A stretch of 62,538 nucleotides of DNA, filler included, from Bipalium vagum (lineage: Eukaryota): the NCBI GenBank assembly GCA_037834085.1. It is 3 parts of 3 records of this genome, joined end to end, with 100 filler letters (N's around TTAATTAATTAA, not from the genome) between each part and the next. Parts side by side here need not be neighbours in the genome. Positions count along the whole stretch, not along the records: positions 23,344 to 41,515 come from JBBMKC010037958.1; 2 more parts are not named here. The stretch is one strand, 5' to 3'. The notes beneath the pieces were generated by a model. It did not search any database. It worked only from the letters and a program-made list of their open reading frames with translations, and was not told where the DNA came from. Shown here in pieces: positions 5,276 to 47,000 of the stretch. The translations under genes and the position numbers were made by a program. Within the stretch, counting starts at the first letter, position 1. Every line of letters begins with the position of its first letter.

Positions 5276-5288
5276 TAAAAATTAAAAA

Positions 5289-6620
5289 ATGCAAGATGAT
5301 GAAGTTTTTGTTAATATTGCTGAAAATGGAGAATATATTTATACTAAAACTAAACCACCAATTTATTATGATGATTATGATAATGAAGAAATAAACGAAA
5401 TAAATGAAGAAATTAAAAATATTCAAATTGACTTAGAAAATAAATTTTTAAATGTTACTGAAGATTCAACGAAAGGAATTTTAAATATGAATAATAATAA
5501 AATAATAAATATGCCTAATCCTATTAATGATAATGATGTTGTAAATTTAAAATGTTTAAAAGAGACAGAACAAAAAATATTAAACCAAATTTTTGAAAAT
5601 AAAAAAATGATTAATATAAATAATAAAATATAAAAGGTTTTATTTTTAATTTTATTTTGTTTAAACAAAACTTTCATAATTATAAAAAACAATTAAAAGA
5701 TATAATAAATAAAACTACATTAAATTTAGAGAAAATCTCCTTTCAAAATTTTAATAAAGAAAGAAAAAAATAAAAATATTCTGATATAGAAATAAAGTAT
5801 AAATCTATAGAAAAGATGTTAATGAAATGCGAATTATGTGTGTAAAGCGAACAGATTTAAAATTTTTATAAGAGAACATAAAAATTCTCGAAAAAATTTC
5901 AAGATTTTTCAGATTTTATAAATAATATTAAATTAAAATTAAAACAATATTTAGCAGTTGATGATTATAAAAAAAATCTATGAAAAATTTAAGTGAGCTG
6001 TCGGTTCTAGCACTGAAGGTGAGCCATTCGTTTGGCATTCTTACTGGAATCAACAAACAGTATATATTTTGAAAAATTAAAAATCAATATAAACAGTTTT
6101 GGATATTTTAATGGAGACAGAACATTTTTTTGAAAGATGAATTTACAATAATATTAGTTGCAGATAAAAATGAATACATAAACAGTATAGTTGTAAATTT
6201 TGGAACAACAAATAATCATAATGTTTTTGGTTGGTACACTTATAGGAATTATTTTATGGTGAATGGAAAATCTTTAGAAAAAAGTTTGTTATAAGTTATA
6301 AAGGAACTGATTTAATATTTCTAAGATTTGCTCAATTGATTTGGTATGATAAAAAAAAGAAATTTTATTTATTTTATAATTCAGAAAATAAATTTGAATC
6401 CATTTGTAAAACGCGTAGCTTTACTAAAGGTAGAAAAACTAATTTTTCATTTAAAATTAATTTAGAAAATATAAAAATTTATGAGATTATGGTTTTTCAT
6501 AGATATTTACAAAATAATGAATTAAAAGAAATTGAAATTTTTATGAAACAATTTTATCCTAATATAAGGTATGATGTAAAATTCTATTTTTTAAATGGAA
6601 GAACCAAGTGCACCTTTTGA
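5289..6620 (+). pseudogene. Polinton fibre-like protein (N-terminal fibre repeat, C-terminal LamG-like segment), fragmented
   Basis: GILNMNNNKIINMPNPINDNDVVNLK resembles the fibre repeat GxLNMxxxKIxNxxxPxxxxDxxNK; KIYEIMVFHRYLQNNELKEIEIFM resembles a LamG C-terminus. Many stops in between. Confidence 0.45.
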
Positions 6621-23753: not shown

Positions 23754-26700
23754 ATGCCTGATAGCATTAAAGAATTTCTTCATGATTGGTGTAATCAATC
23801 TAGAAGAACACAACCAACATATATTATAACAAATCAAGGTTTAAATGGAAAACGATTTATTTGCGAGGTTTTAATGTTTATTTTACGAATCGGACTTTAT
23901 ATGAAATAGGTAACAGTTGAGGGTTTTAATTATACAGGTTATGCAACTAGTACTGACAAACAAGATGCTGAAATAAAAGCTGTTCAAGATCTTGTAAAAT
24001 ATATGATTCGTCAGAATTTTATTGAAAAGCATTTGTTAGAAGAATTTGAAGTACAAAAAATAATGTAATTCAAATCAGGTTGAAAATTTTTTTCAGAAGA
24101 AAGGATCTTTTCAATATATGGATGAAAATCAAGTTAATGAGAGCAATAATTCACATGACTCAATTTCGGATGACAATGAGTCAGATATTGATAATATTGA
24201 TGAAAATCAAATGGAAGAAGTCATTATTTATATTTTAATTAATTATATAATTTTATCTTAATTTTCAAATGCATTTTTCAGACAACTGATGGAAATTGGT
24301 CATTAAGCAATGCAAAAGAAAGATTAGATAGGTTCATGCAACAGAATAAAATGTATTCAGAATATAATTACAAGGCTGTTGGTCCAATTTATAACAGGTA
24401 GAAAACATTTTTGAAAAACACCTCTTAAGAAATAAAGTTTTATTATTTTAATTTCAGTTTCTAATTACGATAACTTTTATGCAGTATCTTAAATTTGTAA
24501 ACACCTTTTAAAATAATGAAATTGTTCAATGTTTATAATAAGACAGTGTAAAAAATCATTTAATTTTCTGTTGCATTTCCATATTATTGCTTCAAAAGGT
24601 CTTTACAATTTAAGATATACAGCTATTTTTATAATGAATTAATAATGATTATTAGTGCATTTAAATTTAGGTACATTTATGCTTTCTCTTTGATGGTTGG
24701 TGTTATTTACAATGGTATTAAAATTGCAGAAGAAACATTTGTGAAATGACAATCTATTTCAAGAAATTGCAAAGAACTCTGAAAGCATGTGAGTCGGGAG
24801 CCACTAAAGAGGAATCGTCTAAGGCTTGTGCACTCAACTTGGTAAAGCAATTGTATCGATTAGGACTTATTGAATCGTTCGGTGGAGTACTTAAGAAAAA
24901 ACGAGGAGGCCAAGTAAGACCATTTGATTTAAGAAATCTTTAAATTTAAGATTTTTCTTATTCGAGATACTAAATAAGACCCTTTTTATTTGTAAAAAAT
25001 ACTTTGTAACCCTATAATTTTTAGTGTTTATCTATTGAAATTAAAGAAAATTAGGTGTTTAAATTGACAATAAATAGAATCAATATATTTTATTTTCTTC
25101 ATGTTGTACCACAATTCATTATTAATAAATGATTTTTTATACTATAAAATGATTCTTTTTGTTATTTGACTATTTGATTATTATCTTCTCACTGTTTTTC
25201 AATAATTCTATTAAAGAGGTTCACTTTTTTTAAAGACAAATATATTACTTTATAACTCACTGTAACTAGAAACTAACACAAATTAGTTTTTTGTGATTAA
25301 AAGAATATTTTAACATTAAATATCCAAGACTGACAATTTTTAATGTCTAGATTCCCTCATATAAAATCACTGTTTCCGAAGATTTTAAACAGAAATTGAA
25401 GGACCTTGTAACTAGTCTTGGAGGGCAGCCACAGTCACAACCAAATTCAGAGACAACAGAAAAAATAAATTTGATTCGAAGTCAAAATGTTGTTGATTTC
25501 AAACCTCAGGCTGATCTTCAACCAGAAGTTTTGTCGTGGACTCCTGTTATTCCAAACTGGAATACATGGACATCAACGAATATTAAAAAGATTGGAAATG
25601 TTGAAACCTTATGTCAAATTATGTAACCGTACTGAAATCACGTTTTAGGATTCATTTTCTTCATTGGATGAGATCAGTGCACAACTCAAAAATGCGTTCT
25701 TACAACCGAGACCGTTCAACGAAGAAATGAAAGCCATTCGAATTGAGCGTGATCATCTGCCAATTACAGCAATTAAAGAATTAATTGTGAACAGTGTTTG
25801 TGACAATCAGATTGTGATAATAAATGGAGAAGCTGGTAGTGGGAAAAGCACCCAGGTATAGCTAGAGATAGTTATCGATAATTTCTTGAATTTTTTTTAT
25901 CCAGGTTCCACAGTTTATATTGGATGACCATATTCTGAAGAATAAGGGATCACAATGCAATATAATTATAGTTCCGGCTTATCGGTTTTCTGCTATTTCC
26001 TTAGCAAGCAGAGTAGCTCTAGAAAGAGGAGAAATGTTGGGTTATAGTTGTGGATTTTCAGATAAATTTGAGTCAATTTATCCGCAACCATACGGATCTT
26101 TGCTTTATTGCACTGCCGAAATGATTTTGAGAAAACTGGAGTTTGGTTTGAAAGGAATTTCTCATATCATTATCGATGATTTTAACGAAAGAGATTCAAA
26201 TGTAATTTTATTGATCTTTTTATATTTATATCTTTATTATCCATTGATTTCTGTTAAATTTATTCAGCCGTTGTTTTATAATTATTTTGCCAAATCTTCA
26301 CTCTGTTTTGTGATAACATTTCCTTGGTTGGTCAGATAAAAATTGAAATTTGTAATTTTTGCACTTCTCTATGCTTATTTTTATTTTTGACGAACGGATC
26401 TTTCGAGTTCGTTATCAGTCCAATCACTTTCTTCATTTTCCCTAATTTTTCAATATTTTTTCAATGAAAATTTTGGGTTTTTAACTATCGGTAATTTTAA
26501 TATTATTACCGTTATATATGTTATTCAAAAATATTAAAAAAAAAATAATTTTTTACATTAGAGTTTTCATTATAAGTTTTATGCAGTTTAGTGCATGAGT
26601 TTGGAAACTTTCATCTCATACACAGTATTAAATTATTGATTTTAGATAAATTTTAAGAATTTAAAATTATTTAATCGATATCTTACATATGACTGCCTTA

Positions 26701-29700
26701 TTTGTGAAATATTTTATGAAATACGTTGATTTTTTCGAAAAATTTTTTATGTTTAAACTTTGTTTCAGATAGATTTCTTGGTCATTTTATTGCGTGACAT
26801 GGCTTCTGTTTATCCCCAATTAAAGATCATCTTGATGGGTGTATCCCTTGACATAGAATCTCTGAAAAACTACTTCACCAACAATGTGATCATCCAAGTT
26901 GAAGGTCGTTCTTGTCCAGTCGAATGTAATTTTAGTACTAATTAAAAAAGTTAATTATTGCTGCCGTCATTTCACAGATTATTTTCTGGAGGATTGCATA
27001 GAAAAAATCAATTTTCAAGCGAAGACCATTGGTAATTTTATCGATCTCGAAATGGAAGATGAAGTTGGCGTAGATTGCAATACTATTTGTGATGATGTCT
27101 ACAAACCGTCTACTAAACTAAACATGTCAAAAATATCGGAATCCGGGATTAGTTTAGACCTCATTGAAGCTCTTCTTTCGTAAGCCATAAATTATTAATT
27201 GACATTTTTAATTTTTCGATTTCAACATTGACTATTGGTTTCATTACCAATGTACATATATTTTGACTTCTAACCAATAGTAAATATTTCTAAATCAATT
27301 AAATTAAACAATTATTTACAACGAAAACTCCTTAATTATTTCTTCCATTATCATTTTATGAATTCCGATTTATTTGATTTATTTTATCGTGAAATAATAG
27401 GTACATTGACACTATTCACCCGACTGGATCCGTGCTGATTTTTCTACCTGATTTCAATGTGATCCGAATGCTTTACAAACATCTTTCGAATCACAATAGT
27501 AATGGAAATCATTCATTTTTTCTCACAATGCTACACGCACAAGCTCCTCAGATTGCTCAGAAAAAGATATTTCAATTTCCTTGTCCTGTCCGAAAAGTAA
27601 TTCTTACTACAAATATTGCAGAAAGCAGTCAGACAATCAATGATGTGATGTTTGTTATCGATTTCTGTAAGGATGCTGTCAAGGGATATAATGCTGACAA
27701 CAAAGTAATATATAGCACCCGATGGGTGTCCAAAAGCAACGTGGAACAGCGTAGAAGTCGAGCATGCTATTCGCCAAAAGGTTATGTTTTTCATCTCATA
27801 AGCAAAGCGCGATATCAGAATTTGAAAGCTAGCCAAAGTCCCGAAATATGCCGAACTTCATTGCACAATTTGGTGTTGAAGATTAAATTGTTGAAGCTGG
27901 GAAATATCTATGAGTTTTTGTCCAACGCCATTGAGGAGCCACCAATTCAGAACATCAAAGAGGCGGAAGACTTTCTGAAAGAACTGAACGTTTTAGATCC
28001 AAGAGGAGAGCTTACGGATCTGGGTCGAGTTATTGGTCGATTACCCATTGAGCCGAGAATGGGAAGAATGATAATTTTTGGTTGCATGCTTGGTATTGGC
28101 GATGCTTGCACTCTCATTGCAGCTATCACATTAATGGGCGATCCGTTCATTTTAACTAACCAACAGAATGCCTTGAGCAACAGGCGATTTAACCTTTGTG
28201 GCGATCGATTTTCAGACCACGTTGCAATTCTCCACGCATTCAAAAAATGGAGCTGGGTTTCCCAACAGCACAATTTATCGGAAGAACATTATTGCATATC
28301 GAACGGTCTCAATTATTCCATCTTGAAAATGATCCAAAGTGCAGCTTTCCAAGTTTTTGTTTTCATTCAAAAATTTTTATTTTTAAATTTCAGATGAAAT
28401 CAATTCTAATCCAATCTGGATTCCCAAAAGATTGTCTTGCGCCGCAGTATTTCGACTACAACTATCCTCTTTCCATGCTCAATAGTGTCATTACACTACT
28501 TGTAATGGGTCTGTATCCTAATATTTGCCATTACAATGGAAACCGAGAATTGCTCACCAAGGATTTTGAATCGGCATTTGTTCATAAGTTATCGGTTAAT
28601 TATCGGTTTGACGATGTTTGGATTGGGTCACCGTTTTTTGTATTTTGTGAAAAGGTAGTTTACTTGTTTCTTTCACTCTTAACTATTTCGTGATTGGGGA
28701 TCTTTACTAAAGATGTTATTACTAGTATGGTTATTAATAATTTTTAAGAATATTAATGATTTTCAAGATTTATTATTTAATATTCAATTTACAACTACTA
28801 TTATTATCACTTATTATTTATCATGATTTTATTTTTTTTTAATTTTGATATTAATTTAAAATAAGTAATTGTATAGTGTTATATGTAATAATTATGATAA
28901 TAATAATAATAAATAATCATTATTCTTTAAAATATCAAATGTTTTTTTATAATTATTTCTTGTTAAGTAACTTTAAAATGAGTATTGAAATATATATAAT
29001 TTTAATTGTTTCATTTTTTAACTTATTTTGGAATTGATTTTATTGATTATTTGAAGATAAGAACAAAATTTTATTAAACTTGTTGGAGGAAATGTATAAA
29101 GATTTACACATATCAAGTAAACATTTCAAAATATGTTTTAGATTCGAACTCATCCCATATCCTGCAAACAATTGACCAGGATTTCCCCATTACAATTGCT
29201 TTTATTTGGTTGTCGCAAGGTTACATATCAAAATAAACGAATCACCATCGACAACTGGCTGACATTTGATATTGATTTCGAACTTGTAAATAACATTTTA
29301 TCATTGCGACCGGCCATGGAAAAAATGCTCCTAAATATATGTTCAAATCCGGAACTGATTTTAAATCCTTTTGATCATGACTTGCAATTGATCACTGTTG
29401 TGGCAGAATTGGGTATTCCTTCCTCATGGAAATGTGATGCGGGGGAGTTAGTTTTGATAAAGCCGCCGCCGACACCAGCACAGAAAAAATCCGCGGGTAA
29501 TCGTAAACGGAAAAAATCCGATTGGAACGCATATCAGTTTGAGAACCATCCGGTTCCAGATAAGATTCCAGCTAAAGAAAGTAATACACATTCCAGTTGT
29601 AATTCCATTAATGGATGCACGCCATCTGAAAGTTACCATAATATGAATATAAAGAAAAATAAAATCGAAAAAATTAATGAGAAAACACCAAAAAAGGGAT

Positions 29701-30395
29701 TTTTGCTACCGACCCCAGTAACCGCACCAGTAAAACATGTTCACAATCCCATCAAAAATCGACTAGGAAAAAGTGTCAATTTGTCTTGTAAACAACAAGA
29801 TTTTACTGAAAATGATTTCTCAGAATATTACTATGACCACAGTGATGCCAGTCAGTTCTCATCAGAGTTGAGTGGAAATAGCATTTCCAGATTCAGGTCC
29901 TATGACAAAAGTGACACGCTGCATTTCGATGTCAAGAGCTTGAACGGTTGTCGGTCATTCTCTCAAATGTCACAGAAATTACTCAGCAAAAATCTTTCAA
30001 TCAATTCCATTTTCCCGGTTCATGTTCCATTTAGTCTTTTATCAAATGGAGCACTGCCCTCTCACCCCATTCCAAAGACATACGAGAAAAACGAATACAT
30101 GAACATTTTACAATCAGAATCTCAAAAATCGATAGTCGAAAAATCGACTCGAGCATTGGTTAAAACTCGACCCTGGTACGATCACAACGATTATGAAAAT
30201 GTCAACAAATCGGACAATGTGCTCGACGCTTATAAAAACACCAAAGGTTTTTTAAAGATTTCTGCTGCTGCTCCAGTTCCCCCAGACAATCCCTTAGATG
30301 CGTATGAGAACACGAAGAGTACACTCAAAAGCAACAATAATAAAGAATTGGATGACCCTCAAAATCCAATTTTGTCATACGAATTACCGAGTTAG
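23754..30395 (+). CDS. DHX9: DHX9/RNA helicase A/Maleless-family protein with degenerate ATPase motifs and novel C-terminal tail (13 or more exons)
   Basis: Exons 23754-23867, 23910-24050, 24097-24219, 24282-24397, 24730-24913, 25351-25599, 25649-25855, 25905-26201, 26769-26925, 26978-27179, 27401-28352, 28394-28654 and 29142-30390; possibly 1-2 more small exons to ~30641. dsRBD1 IKEFLHDWC..RFICEVTVEGFNYTG, dsRBD2 GNWSLSNAKERL..SKACALNLVKQLYRLG, MTAD-like WTPVIPNWNTWTSTN, RecA1/2, HA2 and OB fold. Confidence 0.9.
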
Positions 30396-33300
30396 TTTCT
30401 TCTTGGAAGGCAGTTGGGAGGATTCTCAACTGCTTCGATTTGCAATATTTTGTGTAATTTTATTAATTAAAAAAACATTTTCAGACAACACTGAACTCAT
30501 GAGAGGCCAGTTCACATTTCTGAATCCGAGGCGTTCAGAAAATATTAGTAATTATACATTATTTGATTTAATTTATTGACTATTATTTCAAATTCAGGAG
30601 GTAGGTACCTGGTCGCTAGACAATGGTGAAGATATTTTATGACTCAGAAAATGAGAGTAAAACGTGTAGAAAATAATGAATTTATCTCCGATATATTTTC
30701 ATCGATGTAAAATGATATATTGTATGTCCGCTGTCTCTGAGGCGATGCTGTTTTGTGTCCAGTGTGAAAATTAATAATGTTCTTTCGTTAATTCATTTTA
30801 TCTTCTAGTAGAATTAATACGAAGGAATAACAAAATTTGTAGTCGGGCATCCTATGATTTTGTGGTCCTCGTGTTTTAATTATTTTTCACAAGTTTTAAA
30901 AGATATTTTTGTTTCAAGTGGGCATTTAGGCCAATAATTGGATATGAATTTTGCGCAAAGTTTAACTTTAAAAGCGTTGGTGATAAATTATAAAACAGTT
31001 AATAGGTCACCCGATTATGTTAAATCTGACAGTGCTTATTCTCATATATCATAGAGGTATGTTAGGGCATAATTAAGTTTTGTTTAGGTACCGCAAAAAG
31101 TATATAATTTTTTAAAATAGTATTTTTTAAAAATATTTCTGTAATATGTATTTTTTGAATATGTAAATATTTTGTATTTAGTTTGACCTTAACATCAAAT
31201 ACGAATTTTTGTTAATGAAAATTAATTTTTTGAAAAATGTTGATTTCGAGGAATTCTGAAATGAAGAAATCAGTAAGGACTTTAGATTATTCATTAACTG
31301 AAGAAAATGTTAATTTTATTTTTGATAAAATTCCATAAATTTTGTTGAAGCTAAATATTAGATTGCTAACATACAAATGTGCGTTTAAAAAATGAATTAT
31401 GTCTAAAACTACAAATATTTTTATTAATTTAATACATTTTCCACGAATTCAGTAATTGCACCAAACATGATTGTTACTTTATTTTTTTGTGAGTTTCGAC
31501 ATTGGTTCCAATAATAAGTAAAGCATTTAAATTTTCATCTTTGATATTGTCTTCAAACAAAATATATCAAGCTAAAAACTAAAGCAAACACTTAAGTTAA
31601 AATATTAATTAGATGAAAGAAAATTTTTGAATTCAATCGGATTTGCTTCTTTATACTTATTTCGAGATTTCAAATCAATAATTTCCAATTTTAAACCGAA
31701 AGGTAAGTCTTCAAATATGGAATTACTTTAAGAAAAGAATAACTTGGCTTGTCGTTTTTTGGGAACCACTACATGAAAATGACGTCATCATTTCAAAATT
31801 TGGGTGAGATATCCTTCGCAATTTTTCATATAAGTAAAAATTAAGTAACGAAATTAAACTAATTTTAAATCATCAAATTATTGTTTCATTAATTTACGCT
31901 TTTTTAAGCATTTAAATTAACTTTTTCAACATATCTTATTTTCAATAATTATTAAACCTTACAAATACCAATTGCTCCAAGAATGCAAAATAATACACGA
32001 GTACTGCAATACAGATATCCCAATCATTGTTATAAATTTTTAAAATCTGTAACTCTTAAAGGGCATTATTTTAATTGTGATTATATCTTTTTATATTTTA
32101 CTTTTTTGTGTTGATTTCAATTTTAATTCTCAAATATTTGACGTAATATAATTACTTACACTTTACATTTGATTAATAAAGTCTAAGTGAGAGTCCAACA
32201 AATAAGCCAATTTTCAGTTATTGTAATAATTTACGAAAGGAATTATTTTGACTAAAGGAAAGAGTGACAAGCCATTTATTATTGCCTTAAAATTTTACTC
32301 TTTTTATTAACTTTCGATTCATAATTATGCGTAAATAAATAAATAGAATTTTTTGAGAAACTTTATTAGTTATGAAGATATCAGAACTTAATAACCAATT
32401 CAATAACAAAAAATTTAATTGAGAAAGTTTAGACTGAAGTCTGATTAATTATTTCACTATTTTAAATATATTATATAATAATTAGAAATATTGATAGTCT
32501 ACTTTTTTAAAACAATGTTTTATCACATTAAAACATTTTTACTAACTCAGAAAGGAGAGAGATTCGAAATATCTTATTTGTTTATTATAATTATTAAAAG
32601 TGGTTATATTCAGAGAAACTCAACTTCCATTTTTACTTTAGCACTGATCGTTACTAAAATTGACAGTTTATATATTTATTTTTTAAAGCAAAAAGGAAAT
32701 ACATTTACCAAGAATGGTTTAACACTGGTTAAACACTGATGCCATCCTGCTAGCTATTTTGACATTGAGTATCTCTTGACTTCCCACATTCTGAGTAGGC
32801 TTCAACGAAAGAACTCTAGTGACTTCCTTCAAAAGAGAACGTAGCCCGTTTCATTAATTCTGGTATGAAATTGACCTCGAGATCAGTATTCAATAAAAAT
32901 AGATCTAATTTTACTCAAAAATCAGTGACAAGCGATTTTTTTGGAAAGCATACGATGAAAAAATTTCCCTATATTTAATGCTTCGCAATTGGATTATAAA
33001 ATATTCAAATATCCAACATTTGTCTTCCTAATTGAACAAGATATTACTTTTCGTTTTCCGATGGTGAAATTATTAACATTTCACAAAGTTGAATTACACT
33101 CCCAATTAAGTTATTTGCAAAATTACCAATAAATAATTAATAATAATTAATTTATAATTAAAACATTAACACTTCTCATAAGTAACATTTATGCTTTGTT
33201 AAATAAGAATAACTAATATATATTCTAAGTATATATTCTAATTTTAATTTCCAATGAGAAACAAATTATAGTTAATTAATAATAAATATTATTTTTATAC

Positions 33301-34169
33301 TTATATTCACTAGATAATTGGATGTTTTATTTATGTGAAAAACGTTTGTAAGAAGAAATAAAACCTGTATATGTCCTAATTGAGATATCACTGATCAAAA
33401 AAATAAAGCATGAATATTGTATAGATTTCTTCCAGAAAAATGGAACAATAATTTGATATTCTATTTTCCTTTTTATTAAGTTTTTAAATTCAATAAATAA
33501 TAATTGATTCTTGTATATATCCTTATTTTATCTGTATTATTCATTTTTGCTATAGAGCAGATTTTAAAATAAAAAAATAAATTATTAACTCTCAAAAGTC
33601 AAAAGGATTAAATGAAAGCTGTCTGGAAGTTGAAGATAAGGTTGGTTTGTTGTGGATTTTTTATAATTGTTCAGATCTGAAAATATTATAAGCGGCTTTG
33701 AATTATATTATATTTATATGGCACAGATAACTCATGAAAAAAATATCAAAATGCTAAATAATTTATTTCGAAATACAAAAAGTTTATTCATGTGAATTTA
33801 ATCGTAAATTAAATTGAATATATTTAATCATTTATTATTAAATATCAATATTATCAATATATTAGAAAGATGATCAGTCAAGGAGATACTTAGATTGATA
33901 TAAAATAACATTTAGTTTAATATGTTTATAATATATAATAATTAAATTATTTGCAATTTTCTGGATTTTTCTTTTGAGTAATTTTTTGGAACGTTTTCTT
34001 TGTTTTATTTTGTTTCCGCCATTTGATAATCATATAGAAAATAATTTTTTTGTATACCATTAGGTCGAATAAATTTAAAATAATAATAGCTTTATATTAT
34101 ATATATTATATAATATAATATAAAATTTTGACAATGTTTTTTTATCCATTGCAATATTGTAGATGAAAT

Positions 34170-34340
34170 TATTAGATTGCTGCTACAAGCCTGCGAAAAT
34201 TGATCCAAAAATTATCTTTTCAATCATATACAGAATAGTTAGACAAGGCAGCACAATATACACTGATGAGGCAAGAGTATATCGTGAATTAAACAAAACA
34301 TAATTATGAAGCATATAAACTATGAATTTGTTAATAAAAC
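34170..34340 (+). mobile_element. Merlin (IS1016/ISXO2-like) transposase fragment
   Basis: IIYRIVRQGSTIYTDEARVYREL..H.NYEFVN resembles the GSxIxTDxWxxY..HxxVNH motif. Confidence 0.55.
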
Positions 34341-34349
34341 TATAATTTT

Positions 34350-35783
34350 TTATTATTGAGATTGGTTTTTATTGTAGGTCATAAAAATCATTGTCCCAAA
34401 ATTTTAAAATTATTCACAAAGCGACATAATCTGAAGTTAAATTTTTTATCTGGTGAAAGCGGAAATAGTAATCTACAGCAAATTGAATCTGCTAAACTTC
34501 AATTGATAAAGATCATTAAAGATTATGAACTATCCGTATCTATAATATGGATGAAACTGGTCTTATATATAGACATTTTCCTTCAAGAACATTTAGCAAT
34601 CATAATGTTTAAGGCGTCAGAATGGATAAACACAGATTGACTATTGTATGCTGCTGCAATGCGACTGGTAACGATAAAAGGAAACATACTGTAATCGGTA
34701 AATCTAAATCTCCTCGATACTTTCGGGGTATGAATATATTAAAACTTATTAATTATCAAACAAATTCTAAGCCTTGCATGACAACTCTGTAATTTAATAA
34801 TTGGGGTAAAAATTTTAATAGTGATATGACAATTCAAAAGAGAAAAGTTCTATTAATTTTGGATAATGCACCTTGCCATAAGAATTTCATATTATCCAAT
34901 GTACAGTTGTTATTCCTGCCAAAGAATTCAACTGCAACTTTAGAACCTCTTGATGCTGGAATACTTCGAGCATTCAAATGTCATTATAAAGTTTTATTTG
35001 AGAAAACTATTGGACATACAAGAACTTCATGATAACATTAAGAATATTCAACAAGCTATTAATAATGTCTTATTTTTTGCCTTTCAATAAAATATGCTAA
35101 ACTTTTAGCGGCAACTGTATATATATGTTATACAGAACTCACGGAGCGAGATTAGTGCTTCAATAATTGTAAATGTTGGAATCATGCTGGGTTAATCACT
35201 CTTGAAATCTACTTGCCAAAATATGACTAAGTATTGCACGATATTCAGATTTCCATAGATAAAATCAATTTGGAATCTCCGTTATCAGTCGATGAATATA
35301 TCTACCTTGATGATAATATTGACATTTTGGAGGAGCTGAATACGGAAGGATTGTTGGAATCGTTAAATCAACGAATAATTTATCTTCAGATGAGGAGGAA
35401 TCAATCAATGAACTAGTGTATATTCCAAGTAAAAAGAAGTTGTTGATTGTCTTGATATTATTAGGAGATTTCTTTGTTCAAATAAAGGATGAAAATCCCC
35501 TCAAAAATTTTATGAAGTTTGAAGAAAAAATCAGAATTAATTTGCAGCCGACACTGAAACAAATAACATTGATTGAATACTTTACATTGAAATATTGCAT
35601 TTGGAATGTGACTTCCGTTTCTTTTTTTCAACTTATAATAATTATTAAATTACTTTAAAATATCATAATATTTTAGTTATTACTTTATTATATAATCGAC
35701 AACCCCCGCTGTAAAGGGCACCCGGTTATAATTGAAATTTTCACACTGTACAAATCTGTCCCTTATAACGGGGTTTGACTGTA
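34350..35783 (+). mobile_element. pogo/Tigger DNA transposon relic
   Basis: KRHNLK..LSGES, IYNMDETGL, VIGKSKSPRYF, LLILDNAPCH..FLPKNSTATLEPLDAGILRAFKCHY; right end cccttataacggggtttgactg+TA. Confidence 0.85.
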
Positions 35784-35859
35784 TTTTGTAAAAATAATTA
35801 AATATATATAAATGTTTATTCATTTTATAATTATTTATAATAATTATAATTTATTTTAC

Positions 35860-36170
35860 ATGTGGATCGGGTGAATATTCACAGGTAATGGTTCCATGAA
35901 GAAACAATATATCGAAAAAATTTCATATGGTTATAGTGTGCAACTTTCCTGGAGCAATTTATTTTGAAATACCCGAATATGGTCAATGTATTAACGCTGA
36001 AAGACACGGAATTTGTCAAAAATTTGAATATTGGAATAGGTGATAGACAAAAAAGATGGTTGATGCACGATGATGCTCCTTCCCAGAGATCCCAACGACC
36101 CCGATTATAAAGCAAAAGGAATGTAGAAAGTTGGAAAAACATTCTGAACATGTTATCCAATGTATTGGCA
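35860..36170 (+). mobile_element. mariner-like transposase fragment
   Basis: GAIYFEIPEYGQCINAE..RWLMHDDAPSQRS remnant. Confidence 0.45.
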
Positions 36171-36489
36171 ACTATATTTATTAAGTTTAAATATATGTTT
36201 ATTAATTTGCTTTATTTATTATTAAAACGGAATGTTTTGTGTCCCCTATAAATAAGCATAAAAAGCTTATTTTCAAGTAAAATTTTGAATATTTTTCAAA
36301 GTTTAATTTACTAAATATCCAATTTATGAAAGCACGATTTTGTAGTTTTATTATTATTAATTTTTTTTATAATAAACCTAAATATTAATATTTTTAAAAA
36401 ATATTCTCAATTTATGATTTCAATAATTTTACTCTAAATAATTAATAAATTTTATCTATAATTAAGTCTATAATAATAATGATATTAAT

Positions 36490-37200
36490 AATAACTTTCT
36501 CCCAATTTTCAGGAAGCTGATGAATTCTTGGATAAAAGAAATCAGCATTTTTGGTGGCTGTTCAATCACTGATCCATTTTTCACCTTCCTAGAAGGATTA
36601 GAAGCGCTTCTCGAAAAGTGAATGTACCATCGACCGAAATAGATGATAGTCAGGTACGCAATCTGGTTAATTTTCCGCATGGGTTAGCACTTCTTATAAA
36701 AGCAACTTTAACGTGTCCTGGAATCGTTTGTTGACGTGTGACCGGGTGTTGTCATACAGCAAAATTATTTTATGCTGCCTTTTCTTTTATTCTGGTCTTT
36801 TTTTGCGCAATGACTGACTCAGACTTATTAATTTTCTCACGATGAATTTCCTTTGAGTCCCACCAGATTTTAGATATCATTTTCCCTATGAATGTTTCTC
36901 TTGGATGTTCATTTGGAGGACTATCCGGAATCGCAATTTTTTTTCTGTGTTTAGGGTTTTCTAAAGAAATCCACTTTTCGTTACCCGTAATAATGCAGGA
37001 AACATTTTTTTGCCTAGCACACAAAGTTTCACTTGTGACTTTAAGTCTTTTCATTTCTTTCACCTCTAGCTCGTGTGGTACCCATCTTTTTACTTTGTAT
37101 ACTTTTTCCATGGCTTTTAAATATCGAAGATTAAGAAGCATTTAATAATTACATAATTTTCAAGAAAAAAATCTCACATTTTTCTTCATTTCTGCATAGA
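36490..37200 (-). mobile_element. mariner transposase relic
   Basis: WVPHEL and IITGNEKWI motifs in ORF 36770-37141, with decayed downstream catalytic region. Confidence 0.8.
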
Positions 37201-37305
37201 AATTAAAAACGACAGATTTTGAAACGCCCGTGTCTTCAGTAGCTGACTTTTGTGATCTGCCCAGGGCCCATAAATGTAATAAATGAACACATTTATTTAG
37301 ACGTA

Positions 37306-38602
37306 AAGGGTGGTCAATGTTTAATTGCGCATTGTTTAAATAGCTCTTCTGTTAAATATATTAAATTTCTTTCTTTATTTTTTGAATATTATAGATCAAC
37401 TATATCAATTTAACGATTTACAAGTTTAGTTTTTAAATTGCTATCAAGATGAAGTCAAAAAAGTGTGAAGATGAAGCCAAGAGAATTATTCAGTTTTGAC
37501 AATTAATGGAGATTGAAAGATAACGATTAAGCACTTCGTAGATGAAGGATGCAAAAGGTAAACAATTCAGCAAATGTTGAAACGTTATGTTGATACTGAT
37601 AAAGTTGGATACTCTAAAGGTAAGGTCCACAACCATCCGTGTTAACTGCTAAACAGCTGAAGAAGATCAAAAATCATTATATGCGCAATCCAAACATCAG
37701 TGAACGTTCAACAGCTACTAAATTCAAAATTTCAAAAACCAGTGTAGCGAATGCGAAGAAAAAATTTAGAATCAAATCTTAGAAGAAGATTAATGGTCCA
37801 AAATATGTGAAAGATCAAAAGGAACGGGCAGAAAGATCACTTAGAAAACTGTACAAGCTGTCGATTCCGTCTGGCGGTAATAAGTTCTACGTTATGAATA
37901 ATGAAACATACTCTCTTGTTGATCCATCTCAGGTGCCAGGTAATGAATATTACAACATAATCGGCGATTGTGAGATTGATAATGAATTTAAAACAAAGAG
38001 AAAATCTAAGTTCTATCCTAAATATTTGGTATGGCAGGCGATTGCGCAGGATGGTCAAATTTCAGAACCTAATATCACGTCTGGAACGATTAACAAGCAA
38101 GTTTACCTTGAAAAATGTGTCAAGAAACATTTAGTTCAATCTATAAACAAATTTAAACAGGATCACGACGTAATCTTCTGGTCAGATATGGCTACCTCGC
38201 ATTATCCTACAATTGTGTGCAATTATCTAAATGAACATAAAATTGATTTTATAACCAAAGAGAGAAATACACCTGCTGTACCTAACCAAAGACCAATATA
38301 ACGTTTCTGGGCATTGTGCAAGAGAAGGTACAAAGAAATGAACAAAGATTGTGACACAATTCGAAAATTTAAGAATGCTTGGGTGAAGATTTCAAAGGAA
38401 GTAGCCCAGAAAAGCGGTGCTAATCTGTTTAAAAATTTCAATCATAATTTGTACACTGTTGGTTATAGAGGACTGTATTTTTATTGAATTCAAATATATG
38501 TATTTGTGTTCTTTGTATTTCCAAAGAAAGTTTTAAAAAATTTCATTCAGTTCAAATTTTATTCACCTTTGAACATCGCGCAAATAAACCTTGACCACCC
38601 TT
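37306..38602 (+). mobile_element. Full-length but inactive ITm DD37E-type transposon
   Basis: TIRs aagggtggtcaa../..ttgaccaccctt flanked by TA. VMNNETY..QVPGNEYY..KYLVWQAI..FWSDMATSHY..PNQRPI*RFW, with the catalytic Glu position as a stop; several other stops. Confidence 0.9.
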
Positions 38603-39449
38603 TATTTTGAATTTCTCAAAAATAGAAAAATATCTATTGTAATTTATGCAATTTTTGATTTAGCACCGCCATGAAACACAATAAGTGTTTATTTTTGATG
38701 TGCTATCCTTGAATATCGTGTCACAATCATTGCATTTAGCTAAAATCATTAATGATATTATAAATTACCTGATATGAATAACAGACTGTTTTCTCTTTAA
38801 AACATAATTGCGTCGGATGGCACATCCATCACAATTCTGTTTATTAATTTAATATTCATTTCTTTATTATCAACATGAAAAATTTGATATCGATCAAAAA
38901 AGAGACTTGGTTCAGTTTGTGTATAAATAATGAAAATATTATTTTAAAAAACAGATTTATTATTATTATTATTCAGATTACAAAATGTTCTATTTGAATT
39001 AAATATTTTTTTATTACTTAAATTATATTTCATTTCTAAACACAAATTAATTATATAAAATATTTTCAATTATTATTATTATCTTCGATATTTTACTTTT
39101 CATTAATTATCACACTTATAAATTTATTTACTAATAATTACATTTTTATCATTATTATTTCGTAATCATTTCTTTTATTACCTTCATTATTTTAAAATGG
39201 AAGTAATTTTTCTTTATAATTATTTAGAAAGTCTTTTACAGCTTACATTGAAATCAAGATTCTTGTAGATTCATCATGTAATTTTAAGAAGAGAAGATGA
39301 ATTATTGGATTAAGTCACATTTTCTCATATTCCAAATGGTATAAAAGAAGTTATCTTCCCATCACAGTAATGTAAAGACTGCGTAAAACTGTGACAAAAA
39401 ACAGATTTATTTATAAACAAATTGTAATTCTTTTTGAATACGAAAAAAC

Positions 39450-39762
39450 CAAAAGTAAACAACCTTTTAAGCTCTCACGGTACAAAGGGTAAACACAGAG
39501 ATGGCTCCGCTACATTTGTAGCACTATGATTGATATCTGGCAGGAGTTAAGATGCTCAGTGCTGTCTGTGATTTGATTGGCTGTTTGTTTGCATTTTATT
39601 TCAGCCAATCAATAATGCCATTGTAAATTATAAAAATTGTTTGAATAATCAGTCGATTATTATTTAATTTTGTGGAATATAATTCGCTTCCAAACCTATT
39701 GATTTCCTATAAAATTTGGGGCAAATATTTCATTTGGTATTTTTGTTTTCAATGAGGTGAGT
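39450..39762 (+). promoter_or_regulatory. Candidate promoter and first micro-exon of an unidentified gene
   Basis: Forkhead-like GTAAACA twice, opposed CCAAT boxes (ttgattggctg..cagccaatcaa), TATAAAA twice, then ATGAG|GTGAGT consensus donor at 39752-39762. Confidence 0.4.
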
Positions 39763-40459
39763 TGTTTAATTTAATTTTTTTTTCGTCAAATATTTGTATT
39801 TGAATTATAGAAAAGTTGACCTCGAAAAAATTTTGCATAATAAATTTATATTTTTAATGAGCAAATATTACTTGATCAAATAGTTAATTTTTATCAATGG
39901 AAAAATTGAGAACCTTATTATTAAGATTTTATTTTTTATTATAAAATACTTATTATTTCCCCTTTTCTTTGATCTTGGATCAATGATCTTCAAATATTTT
40001 GAAAGTTAAAATTTTGTATTTGTGATTGTTTTAAAGAAAATTTTCATTAACCCTCTAAAAATGTGAAGAAGTAATTAGAAATATATTATATAAAATAATT
40101 AAATATTTAATTATTCTATTTTCAATTTTCTAATCACATTTTTTATGTTTAACGTTACATTTATTTATTACAAAAGTACTTATCTGATTGAAATTTCAAT
40201 GAATTCTGTAACTACAGTGATCTTTTTCACATTTCCCATTTAACACAATGTAAATAAAAATGGATATTAATGGATATTATAATTTTTTGCAATTAAAATA
40301 TCCTTAAGTGAAACAACAATCAGGAGAAATCTTTCACTTTTGTTTTAATTACTTTAACATTGTTTCACTATTATTACAATGATGATAATTTTTAAACAAT
40401 TTTGTTCTCTCAAAAAACATTTCCAAAAATTGTATAAAAGAAAAAATTGCGAAAACAAC

Positions 40460-40472
40460 AATAATAATAATG

Positions 40473-40524
<52 letters not shown>

Positions 40525-40547
40525 TAATAATGATAATAGTAATAATA
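40460..40547. repeat. (AAT)n microsatellite
   Basis: Near-perfect AAT run; source of the spurious poly-Leu and poly-Tyr ORFs. Confidence 0.95.
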
Positions 40548-40559
40548 GCAAAAATTAAA

Positions 40560-41150
40560 GTCTGTTGATTTCTGGTAAGATTTTATATTTAGCCTGATTA
40601 AGAACAAAAGAACCTGAGGTCACAAGCAAAATAATGGTGCTTGTACTTCTAATGAACATACCGTTCCATGTTGGTTTGTTAAATTTCTTAGCGGAAATGA
40701 AAGTCTGGAAAATGAGAGGTACGACAGTCGAGTAGTTTTGCTTGACAATAATTGAAAGCTGCAATTTAAGCTGGCCTCCGATTAACCACAGAGGAAATTG
40801 CAAAAGAATTATATGTCATCCACACCACAAATTAAAATAAATAGAAAATTGAAGAAATAAATTCTGCATGACATGACGGAAAAGCAAAAATAATCTTCTT
40901 GCTTCTTCTATTAAACAAGAACCAATCACTTCTGAAACACATTGTAACATGTGAGGAGGAGTGGATAGCGTATAATGAAATGAAATGAAATGGTCAGTGG
41001 TTAAATCATGATGAACCTCCAAGAAACGTTTCCAAGCCAAAATTAGAGAAAAAGAACAAAATGTCTACTGATTCTTGGTCTCAAATGGCTCTGAATAATT
41101 TCAGTTTCGTAAAAAATTAAACTCCAGTAATCGGGAAGTTGTTATAATTG
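40560..41150 (+). mobile_element. mariner transposase relic
   Basis: NEHTVPCWFVKFLSGNESLENE, LKHIVTCEEEWIAYN and QWLNHDEPPRNVSKPKL. Confidence 0.75.
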
Positions 41151-41319
41151 CCTTTAGAAAAATTTTAGTTTCTGGATAATAGTTTTTCTCTTTTCGAAAA
41201 AACTGTATAATCGAATGGTTCTTATTTCAAATAATAAAATATTGTTACACATGAGTCTTAGCAGTTTAAAATTAAAAGTATTTGAATCAAAATTTCTTTC
41301 GTACTAACCTAATAATTAT

Positions 41320-41515
41320 CATTAATTAATTATAATTAACTATAATTATTATTAACTATTATTATAAATATTATTATCATTTATTATTATTACTTTATTA
41401 TTATTATAATAACTATTATTATTATTATAATAACTATTATTATTATTATAATAACTATTATTATTATTATAATAACTATTATTATTATTACTTTTATTAT
41501 TATTATTATTTTTTA
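41320..41515. repeat. AT-rich tandem repeat (tattattattataataac-type units) at contig end
   Basis: Seen directly. Confidence 0.85.
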
Positions 41516-41615
41516 NNNNNNNNNNNNNNNNNNNNNNNNNNNNNNNNNNNNNNNNNNNNTTAATTAATTAANNNNNNNNNNNNNNNNNNNNNNNNNNNNN
41601 NNNNNNNNNNNNNNN
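41516..41615. other. Artificial contig spacer
   Basis: 44 N + TTAATTAATTAA + 44 N. Confidence 0.95.
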
Positions 41616-42152
41616 TATTGGCCTTTCAATGTTAATGACATTTTTAAAATCATTATTCAATTACTTAAAAGCTGATATATATTAAATTGAACAGGAAGCC
41701 AACGTTTTATGATTGAAGGAACTTGAAAGAATACTTGCATTGTAAGTTTGATTTCTCCAACAGAAATTTGAAATAAAATAAGCTGATTTCATTGATTTGA
41801 TTTCATGATCCGTTCATCAACATCTATAAATAGTTGTCCAATAGGAATGCACTTACTATTGGCTGTCAATAAGTGCGTTCCTATTCCAAAAAAGAACCCA
41901 AAATTTTTAAATTTCTTAAAAAAGGGGTAATATTTTTGCAATATTTTTACAAAACAACCTAATATTATTATTTTTTCAAAATGATCAAATATTCTTAGGC
42001 AAAATTGTTATAATTTTTTAAAGTATAATGTAATTTAAACAAATTATTTATTACAGTTTAAAATATAAAAATTGTATTACGTTATTTTATTACTTTATTA
42101 TTATGACATTTGAATCAGAATAAAATGTAATGAAAAATTTAAAATGTTTATT

Positions 42153-43454
42153 TCCTAGTTAGTCCAAAAATTTTCCAGGAAGAAAAATTTTAAAAAATTC
42201 TAAAAATTTTATTTACAAAATACATTTTAATCACACATAAATTTAGTCATTAACGTAAAGTCCATCATTCTCTATAACATTGCGCCATTATTCTGCAATT
42301 AATCTGATCTTTTTGAAATATCAGTCACGATCTTTAAAATCAAAACTGATTACAAGCTTTTTCAACCTCTGTAACTGTTTGAGACTGCCGATCACGCAAG
42401 AAATGTTGTATTGAGCGGAACAAACTATAATCCGAAGGTGATATATCGGGACTTTAGAGTGGATGTGGTAATACCTCAATCCATTTAATTTTTTGTTGGG
42501 TTAATTTAGCACGATGTGGAGAAGCATTGTCGAGCACGTTTCTTGTTGATTAAGACAGAATATTTTTCTTTCAAAATGTTGTAAGCACGATCTAGGTGTT
42601 GGCAGTAATACTTATCATTAATTGTTTGACTATATAGAAGAAGCTCAAAATACAATAAATCATCAATGTTCCACCAAACAATAACCATCAACTTTCTAAA
42701 ACGATCTTGCCGAACAACTGGTACAGTTTCTTGCCTACGTTAAACCTACTGCTTCTTTTGATAGTTATTCACGTAAAATCCAACTTTTCATCACAGGTTA
42801 TAATGCGCTTTTAAAATCGGTCATCTAATGGATTATTCAGTAACTCCTGGCATATTTCAACACATCGCCTGGTTTGTACATCAAATCGGATCAAACGGAA
42901 GATTTTTGAGAATGTAACCATGCTGTTTCAAGTAGTTATGAATTTTTTGCTTACATGTGCCAGGACTGCTGCCACATCACTTGTACTTGAGTGAGGTTGT
43001 TCTTCCAAAACATTACATAGCTCTTCCCTGTTTCCTACAGATGGCCTTCCTGGCTTAGGTTTGTCTTGGAGACTGGCATCCCCTTGGTTGAAACAATTCA
43101 GAAGCATTAGACTTGCTTACTTTGCCTTCTACTTCAGTAATGCAATTTTCTGTAACATCTTCCCTGGTAGACAAACCTTTCTTTCAGAAATACTCGAATT
43201 TCAATTTTTTCATCTGACATTTCCATACAAATAACTAAACAAAAACTATAGTGATGATTCATAGTCTCATTGATTAATATATATAACATACAATACGTTG
43301 TGTTTGTAATAGATATTTGTTGTGCTTTTAATAGATTCTAATAAGATTTAATATTAACATTCTTACAGTGATGGTAATGTATGATTTCAAAAAAGTTACT
43401 TTTGCTTTATTATTCATTGTTCATATTATCTGGAAACTTTTTGGACGGCCTGGT
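42153..43454 (-). mobile_element. Full-length decayed mariner element (~1.3 kb)
   Basis: TIR cores gtccaaaaattttccag / ctggaaactttttggac. Minus strand reads IITCDEKL, MVIVWWNIDDLLYFELL, DNASPH, HPL*SPDISPSDYSLFRSIQHFL. Confidence 0.88.
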
Positions 43455-43580
43455 AATTGATATTTTTTTATGTGATCATTGTCTTCAGAGCCTAACGTTT
43501 CTTTCAGAATCTTAACAGAAAGACATTTATAAGATTTTGCCAGATATTAAAATCATATTTTAACATAATAATTAACATAT

Positions 43581-43871
43581 CAGTGGTTTTCAACCTTCTT
43601 TGTGGAGCGGAACCCCACGAAAACATTCTTCTAGATCGAGGAATAATTGTGCAATAATATAATTGTTTTATGTAGAAAACAGCATTTATTTTTTAAAATG
43701 AAATAAAAATATGTATGTTCAGAGTTTTGTACATGTTTGTTGACGAAATGAAAACAAAATTGTACATGTTTAAATAGATTAAATTTATTCTACTCAAAAA
43801 CTGCGATTTTCTCATTTAGAAATTGAAGAACCCCTGGAGTATACTGATGGAACAATGGTTGAAAACCACTG
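43581..43871. mobile_element. hAT (Charlie-like) MITE
   Basis: Perfect 15-bp TIR CAGTGGTTTTCAACC / GGTTGAAAACCACTG; the 8-bp TSD is not cleanly preserved. Confidence 0.8.
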
Positions 43872-44078
43872 ACACACATAATGCAAATGTAAAATAAATT
43901 TATATGATACATGTGTAGTAAAACAATTTGTATGTTTTCAAATATTGATCTATTACCATTTTATGTATTTTTCTTAGTTAAAATTATAATCTTTTTTCAT
44001 TTGGTAAAATTTTAATATTGTCTTATTTAAAACTTAATTTGTGTTTCAAATAAAATTATTTACATTAGTTTACTTTAG

Positions 44079-47000
44079 GAACTATATTAATATTCTTACC
44101 TGATTATAACCATTTGCAACAATTAAAAACAATGTTAGTTAACAATTATGAAGAAATATTTGACAAAATGAACAAGTTTTATTTTTTCAAGATCTTACCA
44201 TAAATAGAATTCTTTATCAGATATCAGATATATCTTTTACATTCGTGGATGATGATACAAGATTTGAATAGTTTATTAACGAACTACACAAATGATTACC
44301 GAAAAATAGTAATATTCTTGATTTTTCATACAATATTTTTTGATCTATTAAGTCATTTTTGAGATTGATAAGCCTTGAATTTAATCAAGTCAATATTATA
44401 ATCAATTAAGTCACTATTGAATCTAATAAAGTCAGTATTATTCATGTATCCCGAAACGCTGATTGCACAAATGAATGAAGATTCAAATATTCTCAGGAGC
44501 TTTGTCAATTGGAACAAACTCATCTAATTGAATCATTTTAATTTTTAGATTATTTTTAAATTTTGAATTTAAAGTGATAACATGACCACAATGGAATCAA
44601 GTGTTCATGCATTACATTAGTCCCCCAATCAGGAAGCCGAAACATCTCTTGTAGATATTATGAATAGAAATGAATTTTGCAGTTAATGGAGAATTTTCTC
44701 AATTTAGTCTGAGTAAAAAGATAAGTGTAACGAGATTAGTATTGTATCCCATATATTAATTATGTATAATGCACATATACATCAATAAAAAATGGAATTT
44801 TGAAAGATTCTACATTTTGTACCTGCCACTGTATGTACATAATCACCTCATTTTTTCATGTTTTTACAATTTATCTTAATTGTATTTAATCTCTATTTTT
44901 GTGAACAGTATTTCTTGTTGATCATAAGTTTAGCTAGAAAAAGAATAATTAAAATATTAAAACTATATTTAACCCTTTCGCTGCTCCACACGTATATATT
45001 CGCAAAAAAAACTTGTGTATCATACGCTCCCGACGAATATTTTCGCGCTTAGTTTTAAATTAGTTAGCTGCTCAATACGACTATTTTTACTATGTATTAT
45101 TCATGTTTTCTGCTCTATACGATTATTTTTGCTGTTTAATACGTATTTAAGGCTACCAAAATAAATGCGCACAGCAGGCACAAAATCTCAAAACGAATTG
45201 CGCAGCGAAAAGGTTAAATATCTGTAATTAACAATTATCAATATTAACAATATCAATATTAACAATGGCCGCCTTTAACATTTATCATTTTCTACAAGCG
45301 CCTCGAAATACTGTCATTAGTTTTGTGGAACATATCATAAAAAATTTCATTGTGGAACCAGACTCTGTCAGTGCTACTGTTTAGATTCTTTTTCGTTGTG
45401 TGAGTCATCTACCACAGATTAGTCTTCATAATGCTCCAGATATTTTCAATTTGGTTCAGATCCTGTGAATTCCCTGACCAGGACATGGCATTGACATTGT
45501 TACAAGACAAAAATTGGAAACAACTTGTGATAAGACGCGGAATCATGCATAAATTTGCAGCTAGAAGTCGATCCGAACCATTTTTTATCTGTGACAGCAA
45601 TTGTGGTCTCATGACTTCAAGATATTGTATCTTCTTCATCATGCCATTGACTACATAAAGACATCCGGGGCTTTAAGAACTGATAACACCACACAACATG
45701 ACCTGAATGCCTAACAGTTTCTGTCAACGGTGGCGGACTAATCGGCGTTTGCCAAAAGTGTTTCTTTTTAGCTGATTGATACTCGAATATACTGTCATCA
45801 CTGAAGCACACCTTCCTTCAGAAATCAACTGGTTTATTAATGAAATGACAAGCAAACTTAATACACTTGACTTTCGAGGTTGGAATGTCAACTTTGGTTT
45901 CTTCAAGGGATTCACAGATTTGCATCCTAATTCATTGAGACGACGCTGCACTGTGTGTACCGTCACATTCACTCCCATCTCTACTAATTGTGCTTTGAAC
46001 TGATTAGCTGAAAGCACCTTGTATCGTCTTATCATGGTGACCATAGGACAATTATTTTGACTTTATGTCTTCCATTTTGGGTCACATCTGCCGAACCTAG
46101 ATTTCGCTAATCCTCTCTTGTTTTTGAGTATACTCGAATGGTGAATATTTCATCTGTCTTACGGAGAAATTACCTGTACGAAATAATAATATCTGAACTT
46201 GGCCAACAATGATGGAGTTTAAATCTGTACCTTAACCCATGCTTAATAATGATGGAATCAATAAAAATGATAATTACATTAATAATAATTCATTCAAAAC
46301 AAATTAAGATAACTTGAAAAAAAATCCAATGGTTATAATTGACACGTACTGCAGTTGCTATATGAGTTGAGTTTCTTTAAACATAAAATGTTAAGTATAA
46401 CCTATAATTTTAGATATTATCCACAAGTATCGGGGAGTCTAGTTTAAATATCCACAATGTATCTTTTGTGATTGATAGTGGATTAGAAATAAAAGTATAT
46501 GATTGGTATATATTGATATAAACAAAAATCATTGATAGAAAGTGTATGATGAAGTCTTAGATGTCACAACTTTAAAGACTATTTTCATATCTAAAGCCCA
46601 AGCTGCTCATCGTGCATCTCGGTAGTTATATTTTAAAATATTATATTTCAATTTATATTTTAGAGCTAATAATTCTGTAAACCGATTTTGCTTTCATTTA
46701 TTTACAGTAACTCAATATCAAGCGCTTGACGATCACAGTGTTCCTCAGATCATGCACCATCCTTTAAATGCACATAATTATTATATATTAAAATATTTAT
46801 ATATGTATAGGATTTCATCTTACAAACTAAACTGTTAGTTCCAGTTGGATTTACCATAAATCAATTTATCGGAACAATGATAGACTATCCAAAAATAGAG
46901 TCTTGTCAAATGTCTATGAAATTACTTCAGGTTTTTATAAATATAAAAAATTATTAATATTGTATTAAAATTCATATAAATCTCTCAAAAACCAAAAATA

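Follow-up and report, generated by a model that had tools for sequence, protein, structure and literature searches.

Pseudo-helicases are already known, and the inactive C-terminal cassette of Brr2, which is ancient and of the DEAD-box or Ski2-like class, has the superfamily 2 (SF2) fold without catalytic function. Bgcn of schizophoran flies is a duplicate of YTHDC2 whose motif changes are expected to preclude ATPase activity, according to the accessible part of PMC5832417, in which flatworms are not mentioned. For Prp43, the sections of PMC5262380 available to us describe how the motif II glutamate (E219) positions the attacking water together with the glutamine (Q428) and the last arginine (R435) of motif VI, and how motif III couples hydrolysis to unwinding; they are also our source for the role of R432 and for the RNA contacts. 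The main functions of DHX9 are believed to depend on its motor, and its scaffold share is usually probed by engineered K417R or glutamate-to-alanine mutants: worm RHA-1 ATPase mutants resemble the deletion, in the portion of 10.1101/2025.05.11.653140 at hand, and DHX9 function in human cells depends on the ATPase (K417R), as far as the accessible text of PMC12067447 goes. A natural dead copy of DHX9 kept by selection would isolate a motor-independent role. Here we describe a candidate for such a copy, a DHX9-like gene in a stretch of 62,538 nucleotides (the window) from the flatworm Bipalium vagum (assembly GCA_037834085.1), the product of which is very probably dead but maintained, judging from its sequence.

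Gene model and descent of the DHX9-like gene

The exons were placed from the window sequence using stop-to-stop frames, in a model made without RNA:

23754..30395, + strand: whole DHX9-like gene model, 13 exons, 1418 amino acids plus stop, predicted from DNA alone
23754-23867, 23910-24050, 24097-24219, 24282-24397, 24730-24913, + strand: exons 1-5
25351-25599, 25649-25855, 25905-26201, 26769-26925, 26978-27179, + strand: exons 6-10
27401-28352, 28394-28654, 29142-30395, + strand: exons 11-13

The joined 13-exon frame has a coding length of 4257 bp and no internal stop in 1418 codons, in agreement with an earlier reading of this DNA (the original prediction) that the frame is open over at least 13 exons; the extent given there, 25826..27790, contains all six motifs, but the gene is wider. 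All 12 introns are GT-AG and measure 41-567 bp, the weakest splice calls being the donor of exon 6 (GTTGAA) and the acceptor of exon 3, and all motifs fall within exons. The exon 11/12 and 12/13 junctions align free of gaps with the spliced relative P0185, and P0034, a genomic reading frame, stops just beyond the position of intron 11. Coding sequence has a GC content of 37% vs 21% in introns, and an Rfam search gave no match. A contig of run X1 (10,799 bp, depth 21.6) spans 23443-30600 with no mismatched letter and no gap; run X1 is possibly the source of the window, and the identity rules out an assembly slip at the broken motifs, the refutation that the original prediction itself had named, without standing for an independent individual. 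Recoding was rejected as well, because both acidic positions of motif II share the codon GAT (GAT GAT) and no recoding could read one of them as Glu, and so was A-to-I editing, as no change is of the A-to-G type. The window has gaps at 23244-23343 and 41516-41615, in each of which a 12-base AT spacer is flanked by 44 N on either side; the start codon lies 410 bp downstream of the first gap.

By descent the gene belongs to the DHX9 family, where it falls among those of flatworms. Its product has the DHX9/MLE order of two N-terminal double-stranded RNA (dsRNA)-binding domains (dsRBDs), MTAD-like linker, RecA1-RecA2, HA2 and OB; the dsRBDs were recognised by alignment, Pfam dsrm having no match on the split exons, and Pfam found Helicase_C, HA2 and OB (with PF04408, PF21010 and PF07717 over the winged helix, ratchet and OB domains). 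The best PDB match of exon 11 is DHX9 (E 3e-84), followed by MLE and DHX36. An AlphaFold model of exon 11 alone (pLDDT 79, pTM 0.45) has DHX9 as its top Foldseek matches, but with a TM of 0.44 and a root-mean-square deviation of 16 A this is little informative. Trees built on 44, 14 and 24 rows place the window protein with DHX9, apart from DHX36 and YTHDC2. Its nearest relatives are P0034 (about 56-57% identical), with canonical motifs IVa, V and VI, and P0185 (53%), with HRRDCAGR as motif VI and FLPQW as motif IV; in these trees the three form one clade (support 100/100 in the 24-row tree) that nests in flatworms with Macrostomum and parasitic flatworms (95/99), in keeping with a flatworm host. 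A canonical DHX9, P0034, is thus present in the same clade, and the branch of the window protein (1.13) is about 17 times as long as that of P0034 (0.066), P0185 having 0.23. The order among the three rows has support 76/59, with alternatives at p-AU (approximately unbiased test) 0.27 and 0.31, and on the question of a single origin of the window protein and P0185 the shared derived sites number 4, 3 and 3.

Catalytic motifs and accessory domains

For the motif comparison the model was aligned with 167 homologues, a vertebrate-heavy set, in human numbering; P0049 (long branch) and P0190 (oversized model) were removed before alignment, and P0185 was kept out of the consensus. The motifs are as follows:

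25826..25855, + strand: motif I (Walker A), GEAGSGKSTQ; K417 kept; T418S, also in 5/152 homologues
25971..26012, + strand: motif Ia, VPAYR, and base-stacking R456; T443V, Q444P, P445A, R446Y; R447 and R456 kept
26052..26132, + strand: hook turn GFSDKF and motif Ib TAEMILR; V473D/R474K, G492E; T490 and R496 kept
26175..26186, + strand: motif II, DDFN; D511 kept; catalytic E512D, H514N
26838..26846, + strand: motif III, GVS (SAT in canonical proteins); S543, A544 and T545 changed
27441..27644, + strand: motifs IV (FLPDF), IVa (LHAQ) and V (TTNIAESSQTIND); F699, T713, N714, T721 and D724 kept
27747..27770, + strand: motif VI, QRRSRACY; Q760, R761 and R764 kept; G763S, G766C, R767Y

The original prediction had listed changes in motifs Ia (VPAYR itself at 25971-25985), II, III, IV (FLPD at 27441-27452) and VI next to a Walker A, and all six were recovered exactly where it had placed them. 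The damage goes further than it had described, with G492E in motif Ib, V473D/R474K in the hook, S688A in IVa, I720Q in V and K735A; in motif IV, the changes are G659D and the loss of W660. Motif I satisfies the GxGK[T/S] pattern (GEAGSGKST, 25826-25852); DDFN fails DExH, and QRRSRACY fails QRxGRAGR. Among the homologues covering each site, E512 and H514 are each present in 156/156, the motif III residues in 160/160 (S), 160/160 (A) and 159/160 (T), and R767 in 166/166, so that E512D, H514N, SAT>GVS and R767Y are found in 0 of 156-166 homologues, except for one with T545S. Two of the three water ligands (E512, R767) are changed, plus the entire motif III, while K417, D511, R456, F699, T721, D724, Q760, R761 and R764 are kept. 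Four of the five side-chain RNA contacts common to Prp43 and MLE, transferred by motif spacing, are likewise kept (T490, R496, T713, N714), and K735 is lost.

The domains around the motor were retained to differing degrees:

23754..24050, + strand: dsRBD1 (exons 1-2); K5, N30 and K54 kept; N6E, Y9H, N53D, K55Q
24282..24913, + strand: dsRBD2 (exons 4-5); K182 and K235 kept; N186D, Q187R, H207Y, N234T, K236E
25351..25756, + strand: linker and MTAD-like segment; conserved sites kept 10/11
27816..29360, + strand: winged helix, ratchet and OB; conserved sites kept 28/38, 18/20 and 24/30
29424..30395, + strand: low-complexity tail of 323 amino acids, rich in Ser, Lys, Asn and Pro; no RG dipeptide

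Both dsRBDs, the MTAD-like segment and Walker A had been described as retained, which holds for the dsRBD folds (9/13 and 15/22 conserved sites kept), the linker and K417 but not for the RNA contacts of the dsRBDs. From the 14 dsRNA contacts of human DHX9 dsRBD1 and 2, as defined in the accessible part of PMC3597700, the window protein keeps 5, joint lowest among 38 rows, vs 6-14 in canonical rows. The net charge of dsRBD1 is 0, where three canonical rows have +4 to +6; that of dsRBD2, at +7, is still basic. K236E was rejected as a mark of lost binding, as canonical flatworm rows likewise lack K236. For the tail, neither Pfam nor a protein-atlas search found a family, and loss of an RGG tail was rejected as a special feature since the Schistosoma tail also lacks RG.

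Selective constraint and competing explanations

Compared with 55 non-redundant homologues, the window protein keeps 111/140, 101/141, 134/268, 69/211 and 68/308 columns from the invariant to the variable class, with invariant structural sites kept at 79%, and it has 29 invariant-column losses, where five canonical rows have 1 to 13. Motif sites were lost more often (24/58) than other conserved sites (32/175, p=7e-4), and likewise in a second alignment with 34 homologues (25/59 vs 43/194, p=0.004), which is the reverse of active DHX9s such as canonical Macrostomum (0/59 vs 23/194) and Steinernema (3/59 vs 32/194). Despite roughly one accrued substitution per site, the gene shows no stop, frameshift or lost splice site; in simulations limited to substitutions, and insensitive to very recent loss of function, 38/1000 copies were still free of stops at 1% neutral divergence and 0/1000 at 5% or more. 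Given the constraint gradient, the open-frame simulation and the excess motif loss, the motif damage seems to have accrued under ongoing protein selection. The catalytic motifs have thus been lost while frame and fold stay constrained, as in a Bgcn-type pseudo-helicase, and the original prediction of a maintained DHX9-derived pseudo-helicase fits these data well.

As a whole, we lean, with slightly better than even confidence, towards a nucleotide-binding, hydrolysis-dead, Bgcn-like static RNA-protein adaptor. That it is a duplicate, with a canonical copy elsewhere, is probable by analogy, and the adaptor role as such has about an even chance. Judging from the Prp43 and MLE structures, K417, S418, D511, R456, F699, Q760 and R764 could still hold Mg-NTP; with the water-activating glutamate shortened, R767, one of the two motif VI helpers, gone and the coupling motif III gone, RecA1 and RecA2 would fail to go through their cycle. 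A hold on single-stranded RNA in the tunnel could persist through T490, R496, T713 and N714, although the new acidic residues (V473D, G492E, G659D) may weaken it. A dead copy that is kept would need another job, as the usual work of DHX9 requires the motor, to judge by the RHA-1 mutants. By analogy, the gene might have originated by duplication of a canonical DHX9 and been retained because partners bind it, by way of its new low-complexity tail and of the linker, ratchet and OB surfaces, which are well conserved; RNA control in germline or stem cells would be the likeliest setting.

Several points weigh against this explanation. No canonical DHX9 was found elsewhere in the 62,538-nucleotide window, the motif windows were picked by the analyst from known motifs, and p rose from 7e-4 to 0.004 on changing alignment and panel. 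E512D retains a carboxylate; an E-to-D DEAH mutant with measured activity was not found in a literature search that was thin on subscription journals. The nucleotide-site residues also hold the fold, and their retention need not signal binding, while the germline or adaptor role is drawn from analogy. As for other copies, none was found in run X1 at 85% likeness, a threshold that a paralogue at 56% protein identity would escape, and no full-length canonical DHX9 of this clade was among the best 120 of 805 matches listed. A metagenome scan gave 9 loci from 109 pattern matches, none of this lineage, with motifs canonical where covered. The metagenome DHX9 genes L004-L008 have FLDGW as motif IV, with II, III and VI canonical where covered.

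The original prediction had favoured a hydrolysis-dead dsRNA clamp or sensor, which would load on duplexes through the dsRBDs without release and shield or mark RNA or compete with active DHX9. Both dsRBD folds are kept and dsRBD2 is basic, with K182 and K235 in place; canonical nematode DHX9s also lack H207, just as canonical flatworms lack K236, and the degenerate proteins P0081 and P0061 (see below) retain 10 and 9 of the 14 contacts. However, the score of 5/14 and the uncharged dsRBD1 argue against it, and Y9H, N53D, K55Q and H207Y affect binding residues: in the accessible part of PMC3597700, Y9A or the N53/K54/K55 triple mutant abolishes binding by human dsRBD1 and H207A lowers that of dsRBD2 about 20-fold. 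Strong duplex clamping by the eroded dsRBDs is therefore doubtful, and we regard the clamp as unlikely. A slow or re-tuned NTPase or helicase, in which Asp stands in for Glu and compensating changes sustain a low cycle, would agree with the intact P-loop (K417), with D511, Q760, R761, R764, R456 and F699 and with the four kept RNA contacts; but the changes hit E512, H514, the whole of motif III and R767 at once, sites that hardly any homologue alters (a single T545S apart) and that divergent canonical DHX9s protect, which makes residual activity quite improbable.

We see a slim chance that the gene is a redundant duplicate drifting to loss under relaxed selection, or that it reflects a genome-wide trend of fast-evolving enzyme copies. 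The very long branch and the presence in this window of another DExH gene with broken motifs would suit such drift, but the intact frame and splice sites after about one substitution per site, the 79% of invariant structural sites kept and the GC difference between exons and introns do not. Were the gene instead the sole DHX9 of the species, an orthologue left with nothing but scaffold roles after the loss of its motor, the failure to find a second copy in the window, or at 85% DNA likeness in run X1, would be expected; P0034 may derive from another species, and the support for the order among the flatworm rows (p-AU of the alternatives 0.27 and 0.31) leaves room for this. On the other hand, a paralogue at 56% protein identity would stay hidden at that likeness, and DHX9 function depends on the ATPase in worms and human cells, as far as the two papers cited above can be followed; we consider a sole DHX9 very improbable.

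Recurrence, neighbouring genes and known pseudo-helicases

Among the best 150 cluster representatives surveyed (DHX9, DHX36, YTHDC2 and others), motif deviations, some of which are alignment gaps, occur in 5/150 covered for motif VI, 4/110 for motif II and 9/117 for motif III. Three dsRBD-bearing DHX9-like proteins have at least two broken motifs, namely P0081 (Panagrellus redivivus), P0102 (Laodelphax striatellus) and P0061 (Gordionus), and P0069 (Nilaparvata lugens), sister to P0102, is partly broken; together with P0185 (UniParc UPI0006015F27) they are predicted gene models annotated merely as RNA helicases. P0081 groups with nematodes (98/99), and the planthopper pair and P0061, a nematomorph protein, sit on long branches without a placement. 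A tree constrained to unite the six degenerate rows, a group named after tree inspection and involving long branches, is 92 log units worse (p-AU 3e-6), which rejects a single origin and supports at least two origins of degenerate DHX9s. K417 and D511 survive in 4/4 lineages compared and motif III in 0/4, the latter being changed in the window protein and in all four others covering it; single changes are also held in common with the window protein, E512D in P0081, R446Y in P0102 and G492E in P0061. A common route might keep the Walker A lysine and the motif II aspartate and ruin motif III as well as portions of motifs Ia, II and VI. Unlike the window protein, however, P0081, P0102, P0069, P0061 and P0185 show no excess of motif-site loss over loss at other conserved sites (p 0.09 to 1), which weighs against reading them as recurrent cases.

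Other features of the window are:

~44078-58340, + strand: half of a YTHDC2-like gene (RecA2, HA2, OB, C-terminal part), 13.7 kb downstream of the DHX9-like gene
13669-14253, + strand: splicing factor 1/BBP-like exon, Pfam KH-I_KHDC4-BBP above cut-off; its protein-atlas matches gave no information on taxon
20476-20820, - strand: PDZ exon by Pfam search, presumably Mint/X11-like
941-1240, - strand: Regnase-type NYN ribonuclease fragment, PF11977 E 1.4e-4, slightly below cut-off
4581-6620, + strand: intron-free open reading frame pieces, perhaps an endogenous element remnant, no Pfam match; 4581-5093 we take to resemble a Polinton-type cysteine protease
36770-37141, 37783-38301, 45724-46062, 49809-50105, 54797-55360, ~22540-23020: Tc1/mariner-type transposase remnants, weak Pfam for three, others by resemblance

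The YTHDC2-like gene has broken RecA2 motifs (IV FLPDY, V STSIGESSLNIHN, VI HRASRANN, the last spanning the intron 46622-46663) and a better kept C-terminal half; its long introns carry transposon remnants, and for 2/12 junctions the search gave no GT-AG solution. A search of 30400-44077 for the N-terminal half of this gene found nothing, and no R3H, RecA1, ankyrin or YTH part was found in the window. It may be Bgcn-like, truncated or mis-scaffolded, and its linkage to the DHX9-like gene crosses a gap, as 41516-41615 separates the two helicase genes. A killifish protein annotated as YTHDC2, P0075, has DDVH as motif II and SAA as motif III.

We tentatively raise the idea, which we hold to be less probable than not by a clear distance, that animals repeatedly turned spare DHX9s (in flatworms, a nematode, planthoppers and a nematomorph) into uncoupled pseudo-helicases, a convergent Bgcn-like class, and that the dead DHX9 and dead YTHDC2 of this flatworm form one germline or stem-cell RNA-control module. 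Repeated origin, if true, would show which residues evolution removes and which it keeps in switching off a DExH motor, and Bgcn would then be one instance of a general pattern and no longer a case confined to a single fly family. No natural DHX9 pseudoenzyme was described in the literature searched, which covered subscription journals poorly, so that the original prediction holds in that none was found in print; the case is less unique than it implied, given Bgcn, from the sister family, and the recurring dead-looking DHX9s, and a DHX9-derived pseudo-helicase appears to recur.

With DHX9/RNA helicase A/Maleless/RHA-1 (PDB 8SZP, 5AOR) the window protein has in common the order dsRBD1-dsRBD2-linker/MTAD-RecA1-RecA2-WH-ratchet-OB, but unlike them it has broken motifs Ia, II, III, IV and VI and eroded dsRBD contacts, and instead of an RGG tail it carries the 323-residue low-complexity tail. 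The Utp25 pseudohelicase, as portrayed in the available part of PMC9539457, likewise has an SF2 fold without catalysis but is of the DEAD-box or Ski2-like class, ancient and conserved. The precedent is Bgcn, like the window protein a fast-evolving, retained DExH protein, and a duplicate, as the window protein probably is; by its DHX9 architecture and tree position the window protein is no member of the Bgcn family, which is marked by YTHDC2 descent and an ankyrin insertion. According to the text of PMC5832417 at hand, Bgcn is derived from YTHDC2, lost motifs I and II and works with Bam, whereas the window protein is derived from DHX9 and its P-loop is intact.

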